Assembly (NCBI GenBank): GCA_051439605.1
Contig: JBFRWN010000011.1
Coordinates: 1-28,775, forward strand
DNA length: 28,775 bases
Reading direction: 5' to 3'
From: Synechococcus sp.
GTDB taxonomy: Bacteria; Cyanobacteriota; Cyanobacteriia; Thermostichales; PCC-7336
Shown here: one piece after another, positions 7,985 through 27,783 of the stretch
Layout: each line of letters begins with the position of its first letter
Position numbering within the stretch: position 1 is the stretch's first letter
Position numbers and translations under genes: made by a program
The notes under the pieces: model-generated
The model's database searches: none
Seen by the model: the letters and a program-made list of their open reading frames with translations, nothing else
What the model was told of the DNA's origin: nothing

Positions 7985-8079
7985 TATAGTCTTTGACATT
8001 TTAGTTAGGACGAAAGCCTCTGTGCCCAGACATAGATTGGGATAGCTAAAATGTCCTAAGCAACTTGATGGTCGCTATA
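7985..8079. repeat. ~95-bp dispersed repeat, MITE-like, copy 1
   Basis: TATAG...CTATA ends and internal inverted repeat GACATTTTAG/CTAAAATGTC; about 84% identical by hand alignment to 12338-12433; related to 27685-27783 in reverse orientation. Confidence 0.8.
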
Positions 8080-8099: not shown

Positions 8100-8576
8100 T
8101 TAGCGAATCCCTGGCACCGGCTCGATGAATTGCATCTGTCTGTGGCCGGAATTAGCAGGGTGGAGGACTGCGGTCGCTTCATCCTGTGCAGGATTATAAC
8201 GGGAGTAGTCCGGCTGTGAAGGCGCCGCTAGATTGTCGGGCAGACAACCCAACTGAGGGTTGAGGGGGGACACAGCAGGAGAGAAGCCCTCGGGACAGCT
8301 GCCGGGGGGCAGCCCAGTTTCCACCGGACCAACAGGTTGGATGGTGAGAGAGCCGGGCTGACATCCTCCTGGCTGAGAGGACGGTATCCAACCGTCCGGG
8401 CAGCCTTCGGTGGCGCGTTGGAACTGTTGAACCTGCACGTACAAGGGTTGCCTCGGGGAGCGGTCATTGCGGAACATCTGGCTGTCTTGGGCTAGAGCGG
8501 TTCCACCGGCGGTAAATGCGGCTAGGGCGGCAAATCCTACTGCGGGCAATACTAATTGAAGGGATTTCACGGTCAT
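8100..8576 (-). CDS. Secreted Pro/Gln-rich hypothetical protein with two Cys-loop repeats
   Basis: Signal peptide ending TALA; GAGGA RBS; repeats GCPDGWIPSSQPGGCQP and SCPEGFSPAVSPLNPQLGCLP. Confidence 0.75.
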   Translation of the reverse strand: MTVKSLQLVLPAVGFAALAAFTAGGTALAQDSQMFRNDRSPRQPLYVQVQQFQRATEGCPDGWIPSSQPGGCQPGSLTIQPVGPVETGLPPGSCPEGFSPAVSPLNPQLGCLPDNLAAPSQPDYSRYNPAQDEATAVLHPANSGHRQMQFIEPVPGIR

Positions 8577-10530: not shown

Positions 10531-11004
10531 TTAGAAGGTGCTGTTTTGCAGGATGTGGCCAAACTGATTTTCCAAGTTGCCAGCGTAGTTGCCTAACCCA
10601 GAGGTAGCAGCCGTCTGATCCAATCCTTGACCGAGGTTCGACATGTTGGAATCACCGGTCCAGGTGGCGTTTTGATCGATGATGCCCGTTTGCGAACCAT
10701 TGTTTTGGGACAGGTTAAAGTACCCATCCGCAACACCGGTTTGATTCATGCCTTGGAATCCAGTGGAAACGTTATCTCCGCTCCCGAGAAAGCTGGACTG
10801 GTGGCTATGCAAGCTTTGGGAGCCACTATTGGAAACGGTATTGCCCACACCCACAGATGCAGCAGTTTGACCGGCAATCTGAGTCACATCCGAATAGTTG
10901 TCAGCTTTGGCAGGAGCCATTGCCAAGCCCAAACTGGCAACGGCAAGCAGGCTGAAGGTAGCGGTCTTTTCAATTAGTTGGGTAGACATTGTTTTAACGA
11001 ACAT
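10531..11004 (-). CDS. Secreted Q/N/G/S-rich protein with three 42-aa repeats (candidate amyloid/beta-solenoid fibre subunit), copy 1
   Basis: AAGGAG RBS before MFVKT; 34-aa signal peptide ending APAKA; mature 123 aa = 42+42+39 repeats with invariant N, S, Q, QT, G, N, N, Q, Q positions; no K, R, P or C. Confidence 0.85.
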   Translation of the reverse strand: MFVKTMSTQLIEKTATFSLLAVASLGLAMAPAKADNYSDVTQIAGQTAASVGVGNTVSNSGSQSLHSHQSSFLGSGDNVSTGFQGMNQTGVADGYFNLSQNNGSQTGIIDQNATWTGDSNMSNLGQGLDQTAATSGLGNYAGNLENQFGHILQNSTF

Positions 11005-11104
11005 GGGAATGGTTCTCCTTGGTTGCGGTGTCGATGGCGTGAACCTATCGACATTGCTATCTTCCTTCCAGAACATATTCTTTTCTGCGATCGATGTATC
11101 GCGA
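10531..11104 (-). repeat. 574-bp direct duplication, unit 1 (CDS plus 100-bp leader)
   Basis: Aligns without gaps to 12437-13010 at offset 1906; about 95% identity by hand count. Confidence 0.95.
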
Positions 11105-11217: not shown

Positions 11218-11256
11218 AAAATAGCTGCCGATCTCAAAGATATCGGCAGCTATTTT
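11218..11256. terminator. Perfect 15-bp inverted repeat, probable bidirectional terminator
   Basis: AAAATAGCTGCCGAT-9nt-ATCGGCAGCTATTTT, between the 11325 stop and the leader of repeat-protein copy 1. Confidence 0.7.
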
Positions 11257-11324: not shown

Positions 11325-11684
11325 CTACTGACAGGAAGTTGTCGTGACAGAGCTCTGACTGTACAACCCCCCTGAGCTAGAGCGAGTGGTTTGAAGCGTC
11401 TGAGAAGTGATACTACCTGCGTTACACAGAGCGGTTTGTGGAACAACTCTGAGTTGAGGTTGACGGACGCCAAAGAATCGATATCGGGTAAAGATATCGA
11501 GCCAATTTTGTGGCAAGAAGATTGAATATTCTGGTGGGGATTCAATCTCAATATCTTCGCCATCTGAAATAGTGATTCGAGTCGTGGGACTGTGCACCTC
11601 TAGCTCGCGCGCGATCGCCACTCTTGTCAGTCCGCCGAATAGAATCGCGAGGAACATCAAGAGAACAAACTGTTTGATATTCAT
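11325..11684 (-). CDS. Small secreted hypothetical protein with a C-terminal Cys-bracketed S/T/Q-rich segment
   Basis: GAGG RBS; signal peptide ending VAIA; C-terminus CNAGSITSQTLQTTRSSSGGLYSQSSVTTTSCQ. Confidence 0.78.
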   Translation of the reverse strand: MNIKQFVLLMFLAILFGGLTRVAIARELEVHSPTTRITISDGEDIEIESPPEYSIFLPQNWLDIFTRYRFFGVRQPQLRVVPQTALCNAGSITSQTLQTTRSSSGGLYSQSSVTTTSCQ

Positions 11685-11812: not shown

Positions 11813-12214
11813 CTAAGGAAGTCCCAAAGACTCCATGAAGTTGGTATCGTGAGCGGGGCTGTAGATATCCAGGGGCACGTAAATGGACGTACCGATGACC
11901 GGACCAGCGATTCCTGGCCCGACGGTTTCACTACCGCCAACCAGGTGGTTGCTATTGCGAATTTGGGTGGCATCCCCTGCCCCCGTATAGGTTTGACTTT
12001 GGACGTTTGTGGTCGTGTTTCCCCAGCAGGGACCGTCCACAGCCATGCCAACGTTGTTGACTTGTTGGCCGGATTGCTGAGTACCGGAAATTTGCAGCTG
12101 GAGGGCAATGTCAGTCATCACGCAGGCAGCCGTTGCTGGTGGAGCAGAGAATCCTGCGATCGCGAGCAAAGACGGCACAAGCAACAATCCGGAGGAGAGG
12201 AATTTGAACGTCAT
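11813..12214 (-). CDS. Small secreted Q/N/G/T-rich hypothetical protein with one Cys pair
   Basis: GGAG RBS before MTFKF; signal peptide ending PATA; mature ACVMTDIALQLQISGTQQSGQQVNNVGMAVDGPCWGNTTTNVQSQTYTG... Confidence 0.8.
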   Translation of the reverse strand: MTFKFLSSGLLLVPSLLAIAGFSAPPATAACVMTDIALQLQISGTQQSGQQVNNVGMAVDGPCWGNTTTNVQSQTYTGAGDATQIRNSNHLVGGSETVGPGIAGPVIGTSIYVPLDIYSPAHDTNFMESLGLP

Positions 12215-12337: not shown

Positions 12338-12433
12338 TATAGTTTTTGACATGTCTAGTAAGGACGTAAGTCTCTACACCCAGTCATGGATTGGGATAGC
12401 TAAAATGTCCTCAGCGACTTGACGGTCGCCATA
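12338..12433. repeat. ~96-bp dispersed repeat, MITE-like, copy 2
   Basis: Shares GATTGGGATAGCTAAAATGTCCT and flanks with 7985-8079; ends 3 bp from the stop codon at 12437. Confidence 0.8.
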
Positions 12434-12436
12434 GTC

Positions 12437-12910
12437 TTAGAAAGTGCTGTTTTGCAGGATGTGGCCAAACTGATTTTCCAAGTTGCCAGCGTAGTTACCA
12501 AACCCAGATGTAGCAGCTGTCTGATCCAACCCTTGGCCGAGGTTCGCCATGTTGGAATCACCAGTCCAGGTGGCGTTCTGATCGATGATGCCGGTTTGGG
12601 AACCATTGTTTTGAGACAGGTTAAAGTACCCATCCGCAACACCGGTTTGATTCATACCCTGGAATCCAGTAGAAACGTTATCTCCGCTACCTAACCAGCT
12701 GGACTGGTTGCTATGCAAGCTTTGGGAGCCACTATTGGAAACGGTATTGCCCACACCCACAGATGCAGCAGTTTGACCGGCAATCTGAGTCACATCCGAA
12801 TAGTTGTCGGCTTTGGCAGGAGCCATTGCCAAGCCCAAACTGGCAACGGCAAGCAGGCTGAAGGTAGCGGTCTTTTCAATTAGTTGGGCAGACATTGTTT
12901 TAACGAACAT
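12437..12910 (-). CDS. Secreted Q/N/G/S-rich protein with three 42-aa repeats, copy 2
   Basis: 152/157 aa identical to 10531-11004; same RBS and signal peptide. Confidence 0.85.
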   Translation of the reverse strand: MFVKTMSAQLIEKTATFSLLAVASLGLAMAPAKADNYSDVTQIAGQTAASVGVGNTVSNSGSQSLHSNQSSWLGSGDNVSTGFQGMNQTGVADGYFNLSQNNGSQTGIIDQNATWTGDSNMANLGQGLDQTAATSGFGNYAGNLENQFGHILQNSTF

Positions 12911-13277: not shown

Positions 13278-14003
13278 GGAAGTCCTAGACATGTAAGGAC
13301 GCATTGTAGTGGTGTACAAACATCCAAATTGCTCCGATATGATTCTCGAGCTTTTTAGAAAAGGAGAGAGTCTTGCGAATTAAGCGTGCAACTCGTTGCG
13401 CATCGAACAGTTGAAGCGCTCGATATAACTGGTTTTGCCAGTTTCCTTGCCCACAGCTTTGTGGCGTTTCTGAGGAAAGACAAGAGCCTAAGCATCCCAA
13501 AAATCGGTATAGGCTGCCGTGCATTGGCGGTAGATATCCGGTAACTACTCCCAAAGCATACGGGCTCCCTGCTCGGTGCGATCGCCCACGTGGGCTCCAA
13601 CAATCTCACGAGTGCTGACATCCTGAGCCAGCAAGATCCATTGCTTGCTACCTTTATCATTCACAAACGACCACATCTCATCGCACCGAATTGTCAATGA
13701 CCCTTTGGTTTGAAGACACACTGACTTGACGGGAAACCGCTTCGTATTTGCGATTGGCATAGTCTTGCAGCCAGCTTTCAGAAACCTCACAAACCCTGGC
13801 GATACCTGCCAGAGGAATTTTTTCGAGCAACAGCTTATCAATCAAGTCGTTGGTTTTTTGGGGAATCCGTTTGTTCTGAGGATCTTCGACAAACTGACGG
13901 TTATAGGCTTTGTACTTGAAATTTTGTTTGCCGTTATGGATACGACCGTTCTTAACGACGTCCTCGGAGCCACAGTTTGGGCAATTTGGCTTCAACATCA
14001 GCC
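13278..14003 (-). mobile_element. Degenerate IS1-family element (InsA/InsB-type transposase pseudogene)
   Basis: CPNCGSEDVVKNGRIHNGKQNF zinc ribbon (second CxxC decayed to YKAY), CDEMWSFV, EIVGAHVGDR, YTDFW and RLIRKTLSFSKK...HHYN; in-frame stops at 13545-13547 and 13488-13490 and a frameshift near 13400; GGAAGTCCTAGACATG end at 13278. Confidence 0.9.
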
Positions 14004-14581: not shown

Positions 14582-15547
14582 ATGGAATTAAAATCAAAGC
14601 TACTGGATACCAACCGAGGATTGTATCTTTACGGAACTACTCCTCCAAGACAGGGCTTAGTGCCAGAAGAGCTTATCAAGATCGGAGAGAAGCTAACAAC
14701 AAGACTATCCAATTTGAACCTAGATGCGATTAACGTTTACGACATCCAGGATGAGGAAGGCAGAACTCAAGGAGAGAGACCTTTTCCTTTTCTGCCGCTC
14801 GCAGATTCGAGGGCATATGCCCAAATTCTCAAAAATTTAAGCGGTATAGAAGTCATTAACTATAAATGCGTTGTCCATTATCCAAAAGACAATTTTTCAG
14901 CATGGCTCGATCGAGCTTGGCAGCAGTTTGATCTTCGCTATTTGACTCTAGTGGGGGGCTCTTCTTCTAAGATGGCTTATCCTGGACTCACTTTATATCA
15001 AGCAGCTCAAGCGATCGCGTCCCATCAGTACGATTTTGTATTTGGTGGCGTAACCATTGCTGAACGTCATATCCGTAAGGGAGACGAACATCTTAAGTTA
15101 ATTGAAAAATCCCGATGGGGAATGAGCTTTTTTACTTCTCAAGTGGTTTACGAGCCAAAGGCAACAATCCAGCTGATACAAGATTATGCCCGGCAATGTG
15201 ATGCTCTTAATCTATTCCCAGCCCGAATTGTTTTGACTTTTTCTCCTTGCGGACATCGCAAGACTTTCGAGTTTTTAAGGTGGCTAGGAGTAGATTTTCC
15301 GCTAGAAGCCGAACAAGAAATTTTCTCGGCTCAATCTCCACTTCAGAAATCGATTGAAATATGTTGTTCAACTTTGAGGGAAATTCTAGAGTCTGTCAAA
15401 ACATATAGAATTCCTTTGGGGATAAATGTCGAAAGCGTTTCTATTAAAAAAGACGAGATTGATGCCTCAATCGATCTGTCTCAGGAGCTGAAAGGGATGT
15501 TGGATATGTTTTACGAAAGGAAATCGCATCCCCAACCATCTATCTGA
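14582..15547 (+). CDS. Methylenetetrahydrofolate reductase-like FAD-linked TIM-barrel protein
   Basis: LYGTTPP, VYDIQDE..R...RPFPFLP, GGVTIAERH, FFTSQVVY and GINVESVSIKKDEIDAS, recalled as an atypical MTHFR-like family. Confidence 0.7.
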   Translation: MELKSKLLDTNRGLYLYGTTPPRQGLVPEELIKIGEKLTTRLSNLNLDAINVYDIQDEEGRTQGERPFPFLPLADSRAYAQILKNLSGIEVINYKCVVHYPKDNFSAWLDRAWQQFDLRYLTLVGGSSSKMAYPGLTLYQAAQAIASHQYDFVFGGVTIAERHIRKGDEHLKLIEKSRWGMSFFTSQVVYEPKATIQLIQDYARQCDALNLFPARIVLTFSPCGHRKTFEFLRWLGVDFPLEAEQEIFSAQSPLQKSIEICCSTLREILESVKTYRIPLGINVESVSIKKDEIDASIDLSQELKGMLDMFYERKSHPQPSI

Positions 15548-20283: not shown

Positions 20284-21052
20284 ATTCTGGAAATTGATTC
20301 AAGCGATCGCCAATTTATTTTGCAGGTATTTCGTAGTTCTGCCCAACTTATACTGGGCAGCAATGTAAACCTTCTCAACGAAGCCGATGGGCTCTCCAAT
20401 GCATTGGTTAACCTTGTCTTAACCTTAAAATAACCAAATATCGTCCGATGGTAGCTCTACTCATCACCTGGTATTGGTGTGGCCCTATGGCAATCTATAC
20501 TCGCGATACTCGTTGCTGGCAGCCTCAATACCAACAACAATGCCTCAACGGTCATCCTTCATTTCGGCAACTTTATGGCTCTGGCAAGAAATGTACCGTA
20601 CAGCCTGCAGTTAATTCTGGATAAAGTATGGTCATTTAAGTTGAAAGGCAGACCCATTGACATAGCTTATGTGGCTGATGTTGTAGCGGTCTGGTCCCGA
20701 TCGTTGGTTTGACATTGTTCGTCTAGCCGTAGCAAATTTACGTCTGTCCGCTACCCGCTAGTTGAACCGATAACGCATGATGGAGTTAGAGGCAGACTGT
20801 GTAGTCTCAATCATTTCTGGTTATTGACGAACACTGACGCGCTCTTACTGTGAGCACCAACTCCAACGATTGCAGCCAGATCGTTTGACTTCTTCGTTCA
20901 ACTTTTGTATCTGCGCACCTCACCAACATCGTTTTTTGCCTGTCTGAATTTCATTCCTTCGAGTGCCCTTGAAACTCGGGCAGCCAGCCAGAAAGACAAT
21001 CCTACGGCTACATCTGTTTGCGGGTTACTCCCCATACATTTGGAGCGTCATC

Positions 21053-21343
21053 ATGAAAGTCACACAACGATTTCTATCCGCTGTTCTGACCCTAGCAGCC
21101 ATTGCTTTTGCGATCGCTGCTGCCCCAGCAGATGCTCATCACTATCGCGTCAGGACTAACAGGGTTAGTGTTGGAGCGATTGACTATGGTTACGGGCGCT
21201 ACGACTCTCCCTGCAACTACGGCAATCGCCGATTGATGAACAACAGCCCTTTCATTCGTCGCCGCCGTTTCATTCGCAACCGTCAATTCAACCGGTTCAA
21301 TCGCTACGAAACTGACAGATCGGGTATGTATATTCGCTTTTAA
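21053..21343 (+). CDS. Small secreted Arg/Asn/aromatic-rich hypothetical protein
   Basis: GGAG RBS before ATG 21053; signal peptide ending APADA; 68-aa mature part with 16 Arg, ending GMYIRF. Confidence 0.72.
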   Translation: MKVTQRFLSAVLTLAAIAFAIAAAPADAHHYRVRTNRVSVGAIDYGYGRYDSPCNYGNRRLMNNSPFIRRRRFIRNRQFNRFNRYETDRSGMYIRF

Positions 21344-27684: not shown

Positions 27685-27783
27685 TAGCGACCGTCAAGTC
27701 GCTGAGGACATTTCAGCTGCTCAGAACCCTAACTAGGCATAGATATAAGATCTATCCGTACGAACTGAAATGGCAAAGCTATA
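27685..27783. repeat. Dispersed repeat, MITE-like, copy 3 (inverted, more diverged)
   Basis: GCGACCGTCAAGTCGCTGAGGACATTT exactly matches the reverse complement of the copy 2 end; ends in GCAAAGCTATA; internal inverted repeat CATTTCAG/CTGAAATG. Confidence 0.72.

Follow-up and report, generated by a model that had tools for sequence, protein, structure and literature searches.

Repeat protein A of a PCC-7336-lineage Synechococcus heads an unannotated cyanobacterial family and is a candidate subunit of a curli-like extracellular fibre

The present study analyzes a window of 28,775 nucleotides from Synechococcus sp. (contig JBFRWN010000011.1, PCC-7336 lineage), the minus strand of which carries a compact cassette reading A2-B-C-A1 in the direction of transcription, with the two A copies flanking B and C and lying 1.9 kb apart. 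Gene A1 (10531..11004) encodes a secreted repeat protein of 157 residues, and A2 (12437..12910) is a second copy with 97% protein identity to it, about 100 nt of upstream DNA having been duplicated along with the gene. Between them lie two secreted orphans, B (11813..12214; 133 residues, with two conserved cysteines and an invariant glutamine) and C (11325..11684; 119 residues, with a C-terminal Cys...Cys segment rich in Ser, Thr and Gln). Judged from sequence, A, B and C all appear to carry Sec-type signals. A1 starts with the ATG at 11004, behind a ribosome-binding-site-like hexamer, AGGAGA (11014..11019, minus strand), that is common to all three A genes of the genome. An 18-nt inverted repeat between C and A1 (11218..11256, 94% complementary) is possibly a terminator or stabilising hairpin. 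A 78-nt element between A2 and B (12356..12433) is dispersed and not specific to the cassette, with 74 BLAST matches in the genome, further copies in the window at 8002-8079 and 27687-27718 and no Rfam match. Directly upstream of the cassette is a broken, frameshifted IS1-like transposase (13285..13998, minus strand; InsA N-terminal match below the Pfam cut-off), pieces of which recur at many contig ends. A promoter scan stayed at chance level. RNA from one marine-sediment metatranscriptome consisted of two 151-nt contigs of depth 2 on A2 only, too little to count, and the lack of cover on A1, B and C in that single data set is evidence neither way. Elsewhere in the window are a secreted-looking orphan of 158 residues with three Cys-Pro-x-Gly...Gly-Cys units and no Pfam or NCBIfam match (8100-8576, minus strand), an Arg/Asn/Tyr-rich secreted-looking orphan with a faint score on the C profile (20963-21343, plus strand; E 0.02), and a 321-residue frame with no Pfam match and a faint NCBIfam similarity to part of a methylenetetrahydrofolate reductase model (14582-15547, plus strand; E 0.27).

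The initial annotation of this DNA had described a gap-free triple repeat of 42 residues at 10534-10902 (minus strand), and translation of that stretch matches the quoted repeats exactly. Repeats 1 (10777..10902), 2 (10651..10776) and 3 (10534..10650; 39 residues, Phe-terminated) together make up the whole mature protein, which is acidic (pI 4.05), cysteine-free and 12.6-kDa in size, and the proposed lack of a capping domain held as well. The ten positions said to be identical in all three copies (N2, S4, Q8, Q12, T13, G18, N21, N25, Q29 and Q35) recurred at period 42, and the composition was as reported, with Q+N at 28/123, Q/N/G/S at 64/123 and no K, R, P or C. When composition was kept and the residues shuffled 20,000 times, the best period within 30-45 yielded at most six triple identities (three shuffles) versus ten in A1; autocorrelation peaked at lag 42 with 35% identity and was at most 19% at every other lag from 5 to 69. 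What the annotation omitted was the second copy at 12437-12910 and the signal peptide of 34 residues (10903..11004), which was read by eye, ends in P-A-K-A ahead of repeat 1 and has P31, A32 and A34 conserved in the family alignment. Nor did the picture of A1 as a lone protein survive, A1 being one gene of a conserved multi-gene cassette. The find is larger than the one first noted, an unannotated set of secreted beta-rich proteins: Pfam and NCBIfam assigned no family to A, B, C or to the further cassette genes D and E described below, and an Atlas search gave leads below 0.9 only, with a recognition score for A under the level of known families.

The same genome holds a paralogous A-B-C cassette on another contig, C92 (855-2451; identities 53%, 60% and 37%), which converges on a sigma factor gene that is presumably SigF-like. 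A divergent cluster on contig C121 (17537-19872) comprises a D-like gene preceded by three secreted, Gln-rich frames that each have two repeats and a basic tail; gene B was not found in that cluster. Values of dN/dS were 0.11 for A1-A2, 0.17-0.18 for A against the C92 paralogue and 0.18 for B, and these low values indicate that the genes are under purifying selection. Two metagenome contigs carry A proteins 96% and 85% identical, with B behind A on one of them. No B turned up in 29 genomes drawn from the same genus, family or order, a pattern suggestive of acquisition by transfer or of repeated loss. The genes in the window, like the relatives retrieved, point to a cyanobacterial genome.

A word-based homologue search with A alone returned no relatives, and the family was reached through B, beside which lie secreted proteins that bear the motif Q-x3-Q-x5-G-x2-N-x3-Q-x3-Q two or three times; the first A relatives were therefore located by position beside B and not by A sequence. 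A single B query and a B profile each reached 17 of the 251 class genomes sampled, and B also occurred in 30 of 89 genomes of one family. Run over 1.84 billion proteins, a profile of A from 18 B-neighbours drew 168 representatives with E no higher than 0.001, and a 134-row profile had matches in 19 of the 251 class genomes, 16 of them shared with B, a count that is no independent test as the A profiles include sequences from those same genomes. A adjoins B in all mapped loci but one (16 of 17), that one lying at a contig end, and in every one of the 30 loci from the family search (30 loci of 40 places), where D was present in 27 and C beside B in 23, usually in the order A-C-B-D-A'. In many loci A is duplicated or triplicated while B is single, and runs of three tandem A copies occur elsewhere. 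A is thus the head of an unannotated cyanobacterial family, patchily spread and nearly always beside B. Its database relatives are named hypothetical, bar one UniRef entry called 'Minor curlin subunit', and homologues in cultured strains include cce_1572, PCC8801_2291/2293 and Ple7327_1071. A viral library gave no match at E 0.001. Among other features of these loci, one cassette carries an insertion of about 3.5 kb of unrelated genes that parts B from C (L078:7302-10819); several others (L081, L082, L085 and L155) adjoin a long sigma-70 family gene, with a TIGR02937 match for the L085 copy; a caspase-domain gene also adjoins the cassette in one plasmid record, and one B gene is plasmid-borne. 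We found no published description of the operon by topic or by locus tag in open full text, a body that leaves most subscription papers and supplements outside, and the accessible portions of PMC10936207 and PMC12267927 do not mention it.

Conservation across the family follows the ladder in part. In 131 rows from other genomes, most of them picked by a profile already holding these columns, Q8 was conserved at 95%, Q12 at 87%, G18 at 100%, N21 at 99% and Q29 at 99%, and position 25 was Q in 90% of rows against N in 6%; the Gln/Gly/Asn columns are also kept by those members that were identified solely through their place next to B. N2, S4, T13 and Q35 are not family-wide, with T13 at about 19% in one of the two repeats and under 16% in the other. 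Periods in the family are mostly 37-48, only two motif copies are seen in 113 of 134 aligned members, and basic tails occur in 60 of 132 members. A gap-free 3 x 42 subfamily comprises seven proteins besides A1 and A2, namely the C92 paralogue, two close metagenome copies and four from genomes of a single family (f34). There N2, T13, N25, Q29 and Q35 stand at 21/21 and Q12 at 20/21, G18 and N21 being fixed by the selection pattern, and S4 and Q8 vary. The expectation that homologues would conserve the Asn/Gln positions was accordingly borne out for the core ladder, with six of ten positions kept family-wide (position 25 mostly as Q) and eight of ten in the subfamily, S4 and Q8 being the exceptions there.

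AlphaFold2, run on an 18-row alignment, gave a best model of A with pLDDT 80.7 and pTM 0.65, the other four reaching 71, 66, 55 and 44 (lowest 44.3). The best model has six strands of 16-18 residues in register with the repeats (2-19 and 22-37, 44-61 and 64-79, 86-101 and 106-121), two per repeat with a tight arc at G-x-x-N, and links of six residues between repeats. These strands agree with the proposal that each repeat forms a strand-arc-strand unit turning at G-x-x-N, and with arches about twice as long as in CsgA when set against the seven-residue curlin motif in the available part of PMC10192328. A three-rung solenoid had been anticipated from such a model; the six long strands are there, and the stacking of the arches and the inward ladders are read from strand spacing, residue parity and weak solenoid matches. 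By parity N2, S4, Q8 and Q12 fall on one face of strand 1 and N21, N25, Q29 and Q35 on one face of strand 2, T13 is on the opposite face, G18 is in the arc and the outward faces are heterogeneous. Eight of the ten invariant residues thus share one parity per strand, as expected for inward ladders.

Fold searches returned matches of low strength. Foldseek with the A model placed FapC first (E 3.2e-4; TM 0.16 and rmsd 17 to 9u4u) and CsgA second (E 0.025). In the wide fold search (VIA), in which Z under 8 denotes a common arrangement, all matches to A were weak with Z at most 4.2: the SufBD beta-helix at Z 4.2 (rmsd 1.9-2.4 over 87-89 residues), CsgA at Z 4.2 (rmsd 7.1 over 69), FapC at Z 4.0 (rmsd 6.1 over 95) and the antifreeze solenoid Rhagium AFP at Z 3.6 (rmsd 6.6 over 72). 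The PDB held no sequence relatives of A, the rows returned being signal-peptide or chance matches. The fold matches, weak as they are, would be compatible with a two-sided solenoid lacking near relatives among solved structures, and on the models A very probably folds as a flat two-sheet beta-solenoid of long strands.

B was modelled at pLDDT 87.5 with five strands and a short helix, Cys2 being near-invariant and Cys34 invariant. The model had no fold match at Z of at least 2 nor at E 0.001, a result that shows neither difference nor novelty, and no homology of A and B was detectable beyond the signal peptide. A prediction of the A+B complex scored 0.44 versus 0.00 for the best of three controls, with runs agreeing in at least 94% of contacts and a partner pLDDT of at least 71. 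At that mark 116 of 157 solved complexes qualify, against 2 of 215 mismatched pairs, and because the band at 0.60 or under holds only 18 of the 157 solved complexes along with both mismatches, we count A+B as a weak pass.

Other cassettes contain additional genes that may bear on surface attachment and export. Four of 11 further loci continue after D with an A-repeat frame of 370-420 residues ending in V/I-P-E-P and a hydrophobic segment, that is, a long acidic A-repeat protein with a PEP-CTERM-like tail within the cassette (L160:3774-4880, L161:4067-5167, L163:4007-5113 and L164:1012-2262). PEP-CTERM scores of these four in-operon variants were below the cut-off or absent; one database relative (P0094) passes the TIGR02595 PEP-CTERM cut-off. 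An exosortase is present in the PCC-7336 genome, where neither a long PEP-CTERM-like A variant nor gene E was found. Gene E closes some cassettes (L079:5579-6088, L080:6444-7085, L082:5723-6292, L084:2056-2622 and L086:8039-8632) and is laid out as a signal peptide, an Asn/Gln-rich segment, an alternating hydrophobic hairpin-like stretch and a coiled coil; its product is a candidate membrane anchor or pore. The cassette in the window includes no secretion channel. CsgG is absent from this 99.98%-complete genome by a profile search with positive controls; it was present in 4 of 23 cassette genomes, in none of them inside a mapped cassette, and in two of three cassette-free congeners.

Curli and Fap are the only well-defined Sec-dependent amyloid assembly systems of Gram-negative bacteria, and A, which in the best reading acts like CsgA or FapC, belongs to neither family. 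With curli it shares apparent Sec export, a repeat-only mature chain, a predicted strand-arc-strand unit with an x-G-x-x arc and predicted N/Q ladders, open ends and an operon with accessory proteins. Curlin repeats, as described in part of PMC10192328, measure 23 ± 5 residues with N-x-h-x-h-x-Q motifs, whereas A has a period of 42 (37-48 in the family), strands of 16-18 residues as opposed to 7 and the motif Q-x3-Q-x5-G-x2-N-x3-Q/N-x3-Q, and its partners B, C and D lack a Pfam or NCBIfam family. Neither N-x5-Q-x-G nor Q-x-G-x-x-N occurs in A, PF07012 (Curlin_rpt) was not found in the PCC-7336 genome with a positive E. coli control, none of 20 A-family members had a Pfam curlin match, and the family profiles gave no sequence match to the CsgA and FapC chains of the PDB at E up to 10. 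FapC, according to the available part of PMC12392863, has three repeats, each layer being built from five short strands as a Greek key, and linkers about 30-260 residues in length. A resembles it in the three imperfect repeats of the monomer, each of which would supply a single cross-beta layer, and in conserved Asn/Gln, and FapC is its best Foldseek row, but A has two long strands per repeat and six-residue links, the TM is 0.16 and a sequence match is absent. An assignment of A as a FapC-type protein was rejected on the lack of a Greek-key layer in the model, the short links and the failure of the profiles to reach FapC chains. The cassette has no gene of FapF or FapD size; a genome search with PF13557, which we take to be FapF-like, was positive in none of its controls. 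A cyanobacterial parallel is EbfG1-4, likewise small secreted proteins of one operon; in the portion of PMC9981879 available, EbfG1-3 of Synechococcus elongatus form amyloid and support biofilm, and secretion is by a double-glycine motif, unlike the Sec-type leader ending A-x-A in A, a separation drawn from published descriptions of EbfG.

Three weak matches to the A profile (E 2e-5 to 2e-4) led to secreted, unannotated proteins of the archaeal Methanotrichaceae. Such repeat proteins are present in 31 of 81 genomes of that family, some in multiple copies (L088:5995-7621, L121:180-1904 and L093-L120; one is 575 residues long), with the same Q..A.V.G..N...Q...Q motif at a period of 30-43. Sixteen of 17 scored 10-40 bits on the A profile, with reversed or shuffled controls at 5.6 at most; hhalign of A against them gave 93.8%, a partly circular figure, and a homologue search with the archaeal alignment returned nothing. 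Methanotrichaceae have amyloid sheaths (PMC6242892; PMC11576556), and SH cores are described as antiparallel (PMC11576556), as far as the available parts of these sources go. The likeness of A to the sheath amyloids SH and MspA consists of a repeat motif in other secreted proteins of the family, and these searches established no connection with the sheath. The member from Methanothrix thermoacetophila was ABK15237.1, which is neither MspA (ABK14853.1) nor a listed SH protein. The 575-residue protein, equal in length to MspA, likewise gave no link to it: a search of the 104 remaining genomes of the family at 1e-10 brought up no relative, and the protein scored only -7.5 bits on the A profile. 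Going by the motif, A and the Methanotrichaceae repeat may be related by homology or by convergence.

The patterns detected are consistent with a cyanobacterial system, distinct from both curli and Fap, that makes a curli-like extracellular fibre (functional amyloid) with the help of accessory proteins and has A as its major subunit. In this reading, to which we assign a probability of about 0.6, A would polymerise. A, B and C, with their apparent Sec-type signals, would be exported from one conserved cassette. After signal cleavage each repeat is predicted to form a long strand, a G-x-x-N arc and a second long strand, and three such rungs would stack as a flat two-sheet beta-solenoid with a core lined by Asn/Gln ladders. 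Capless monomers could then join end to end, giving a cross-beta filament with about double the width of curli. The Cys-containing B may dock on the open end as nucleator or cap, as the weak A+B pass hints, and attachment of the filament to the cell surface might fall to C and D, to an A variant of one repeat or to a long PEP-CTERM-like A variant. The outer membrane would be crossed by a route other than CsgG. The fibre would likely serve matrix, sheath or adhesion in attached growth. Support comes from purifying selection, the repeats-only chain, residue parity, the six-strand model, the linkage of A and B, and PEP-CTERM-like tails together with an exosortase; two near-identical A copies here and three in tandem elsewhere give the gene dosage expected for a structural subunit. 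The reading is weakened by the spread of pLDDT from 80.7 to 44.3 on 18 rows, by the weak fold matches and by a cassette with no channel in a genome where E was not found; the sub-threshold PEP-CTERM scores of the long in-operon variants and the scant RNA on A2 are further points against it. The prevalence of two motif copies and of basic tails in the family could hinder stacking and also counts against a fibre.

An alternative explanation, unlikely in our estimate and still to be taken seriously, is a finite rod, in which the same solenoid comprises a few A rungs capped by B (and C or D) as a short surface or periplasmic rod or adhesin. This would suit the constancy of B as the partner of A, the predicted A+B contact, a cassette with no export pore, the scarcity of CsgG in cassette genomes and the predominance of two-repeat members, but A is often duplicated or triplicated beside a single B, as for a polymer subunit needed in excess, and both its ends are capless. 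It is improbable that A is a monomeric surface-binding solenoid, ice-binding or mineral-templating, with a flat face bearing the Thr13 ladder. T13 is invariant in the 3 x 42 subfamily, the chain is acidic and weak antifreeze matches were obtained, but T-x-T arrays are absent and A has one Thr column, which is not family-wide, instead of regular Thr arrays, on outward faces that are heterogeneous. Ice-binding solenoids moreover normally have capped ends, and A does not. Comparably improbable is a largely unfolded low-complexity secreted protein, a matrix or stress protectant or a peptide precursor, with the model as a Gln/Asn/Ser artefact; low complexity, the spread of model confidence and the Atlas score would agree with it, but a gap-free 42-residue register in distant orthologues, face-specific conservation and fixed motif spacing in 134 sequences are hard to explain in the absence of a fold. 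That A is a degenerate long-repeat curlin on ordinary curli machinery is very improbable and already largely refuted, for despite the shared G-x-x-N arc and N/Q ladders, the one curlin-named relative and the occurrence of degenerate curlins with insertions (part of PMC10192328), the curlin motif, Curlin_rpt, CsgG and any Pfam or PDB-chain profile match are all missing.

For the fibre system as a whole a broader, tentative proposal, to which we give somewhat under even odds, is that it makes up, next to curli and Fap, a third bacterial pathway dedicated to functional amyloid. This would be a mobile operon of cyanobacteria with double-width A filaments, B as nucleator or cap, C and D as adaptors, an exosortase-anchored base and no CsgG-type pore, its repeat shared with proteins of sheathed methanogens. 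A cysteine-free 12.6-kDa subunit with three rungs and strands of 16-18 residues would enlarge the range of designs open to amyloid materials. Beyond EbfG, very little is known of the proteins that form the scaffold of biofilms, mats and sheaths in cyanobacteria, and the cassette offers a small, testable candidate for it.
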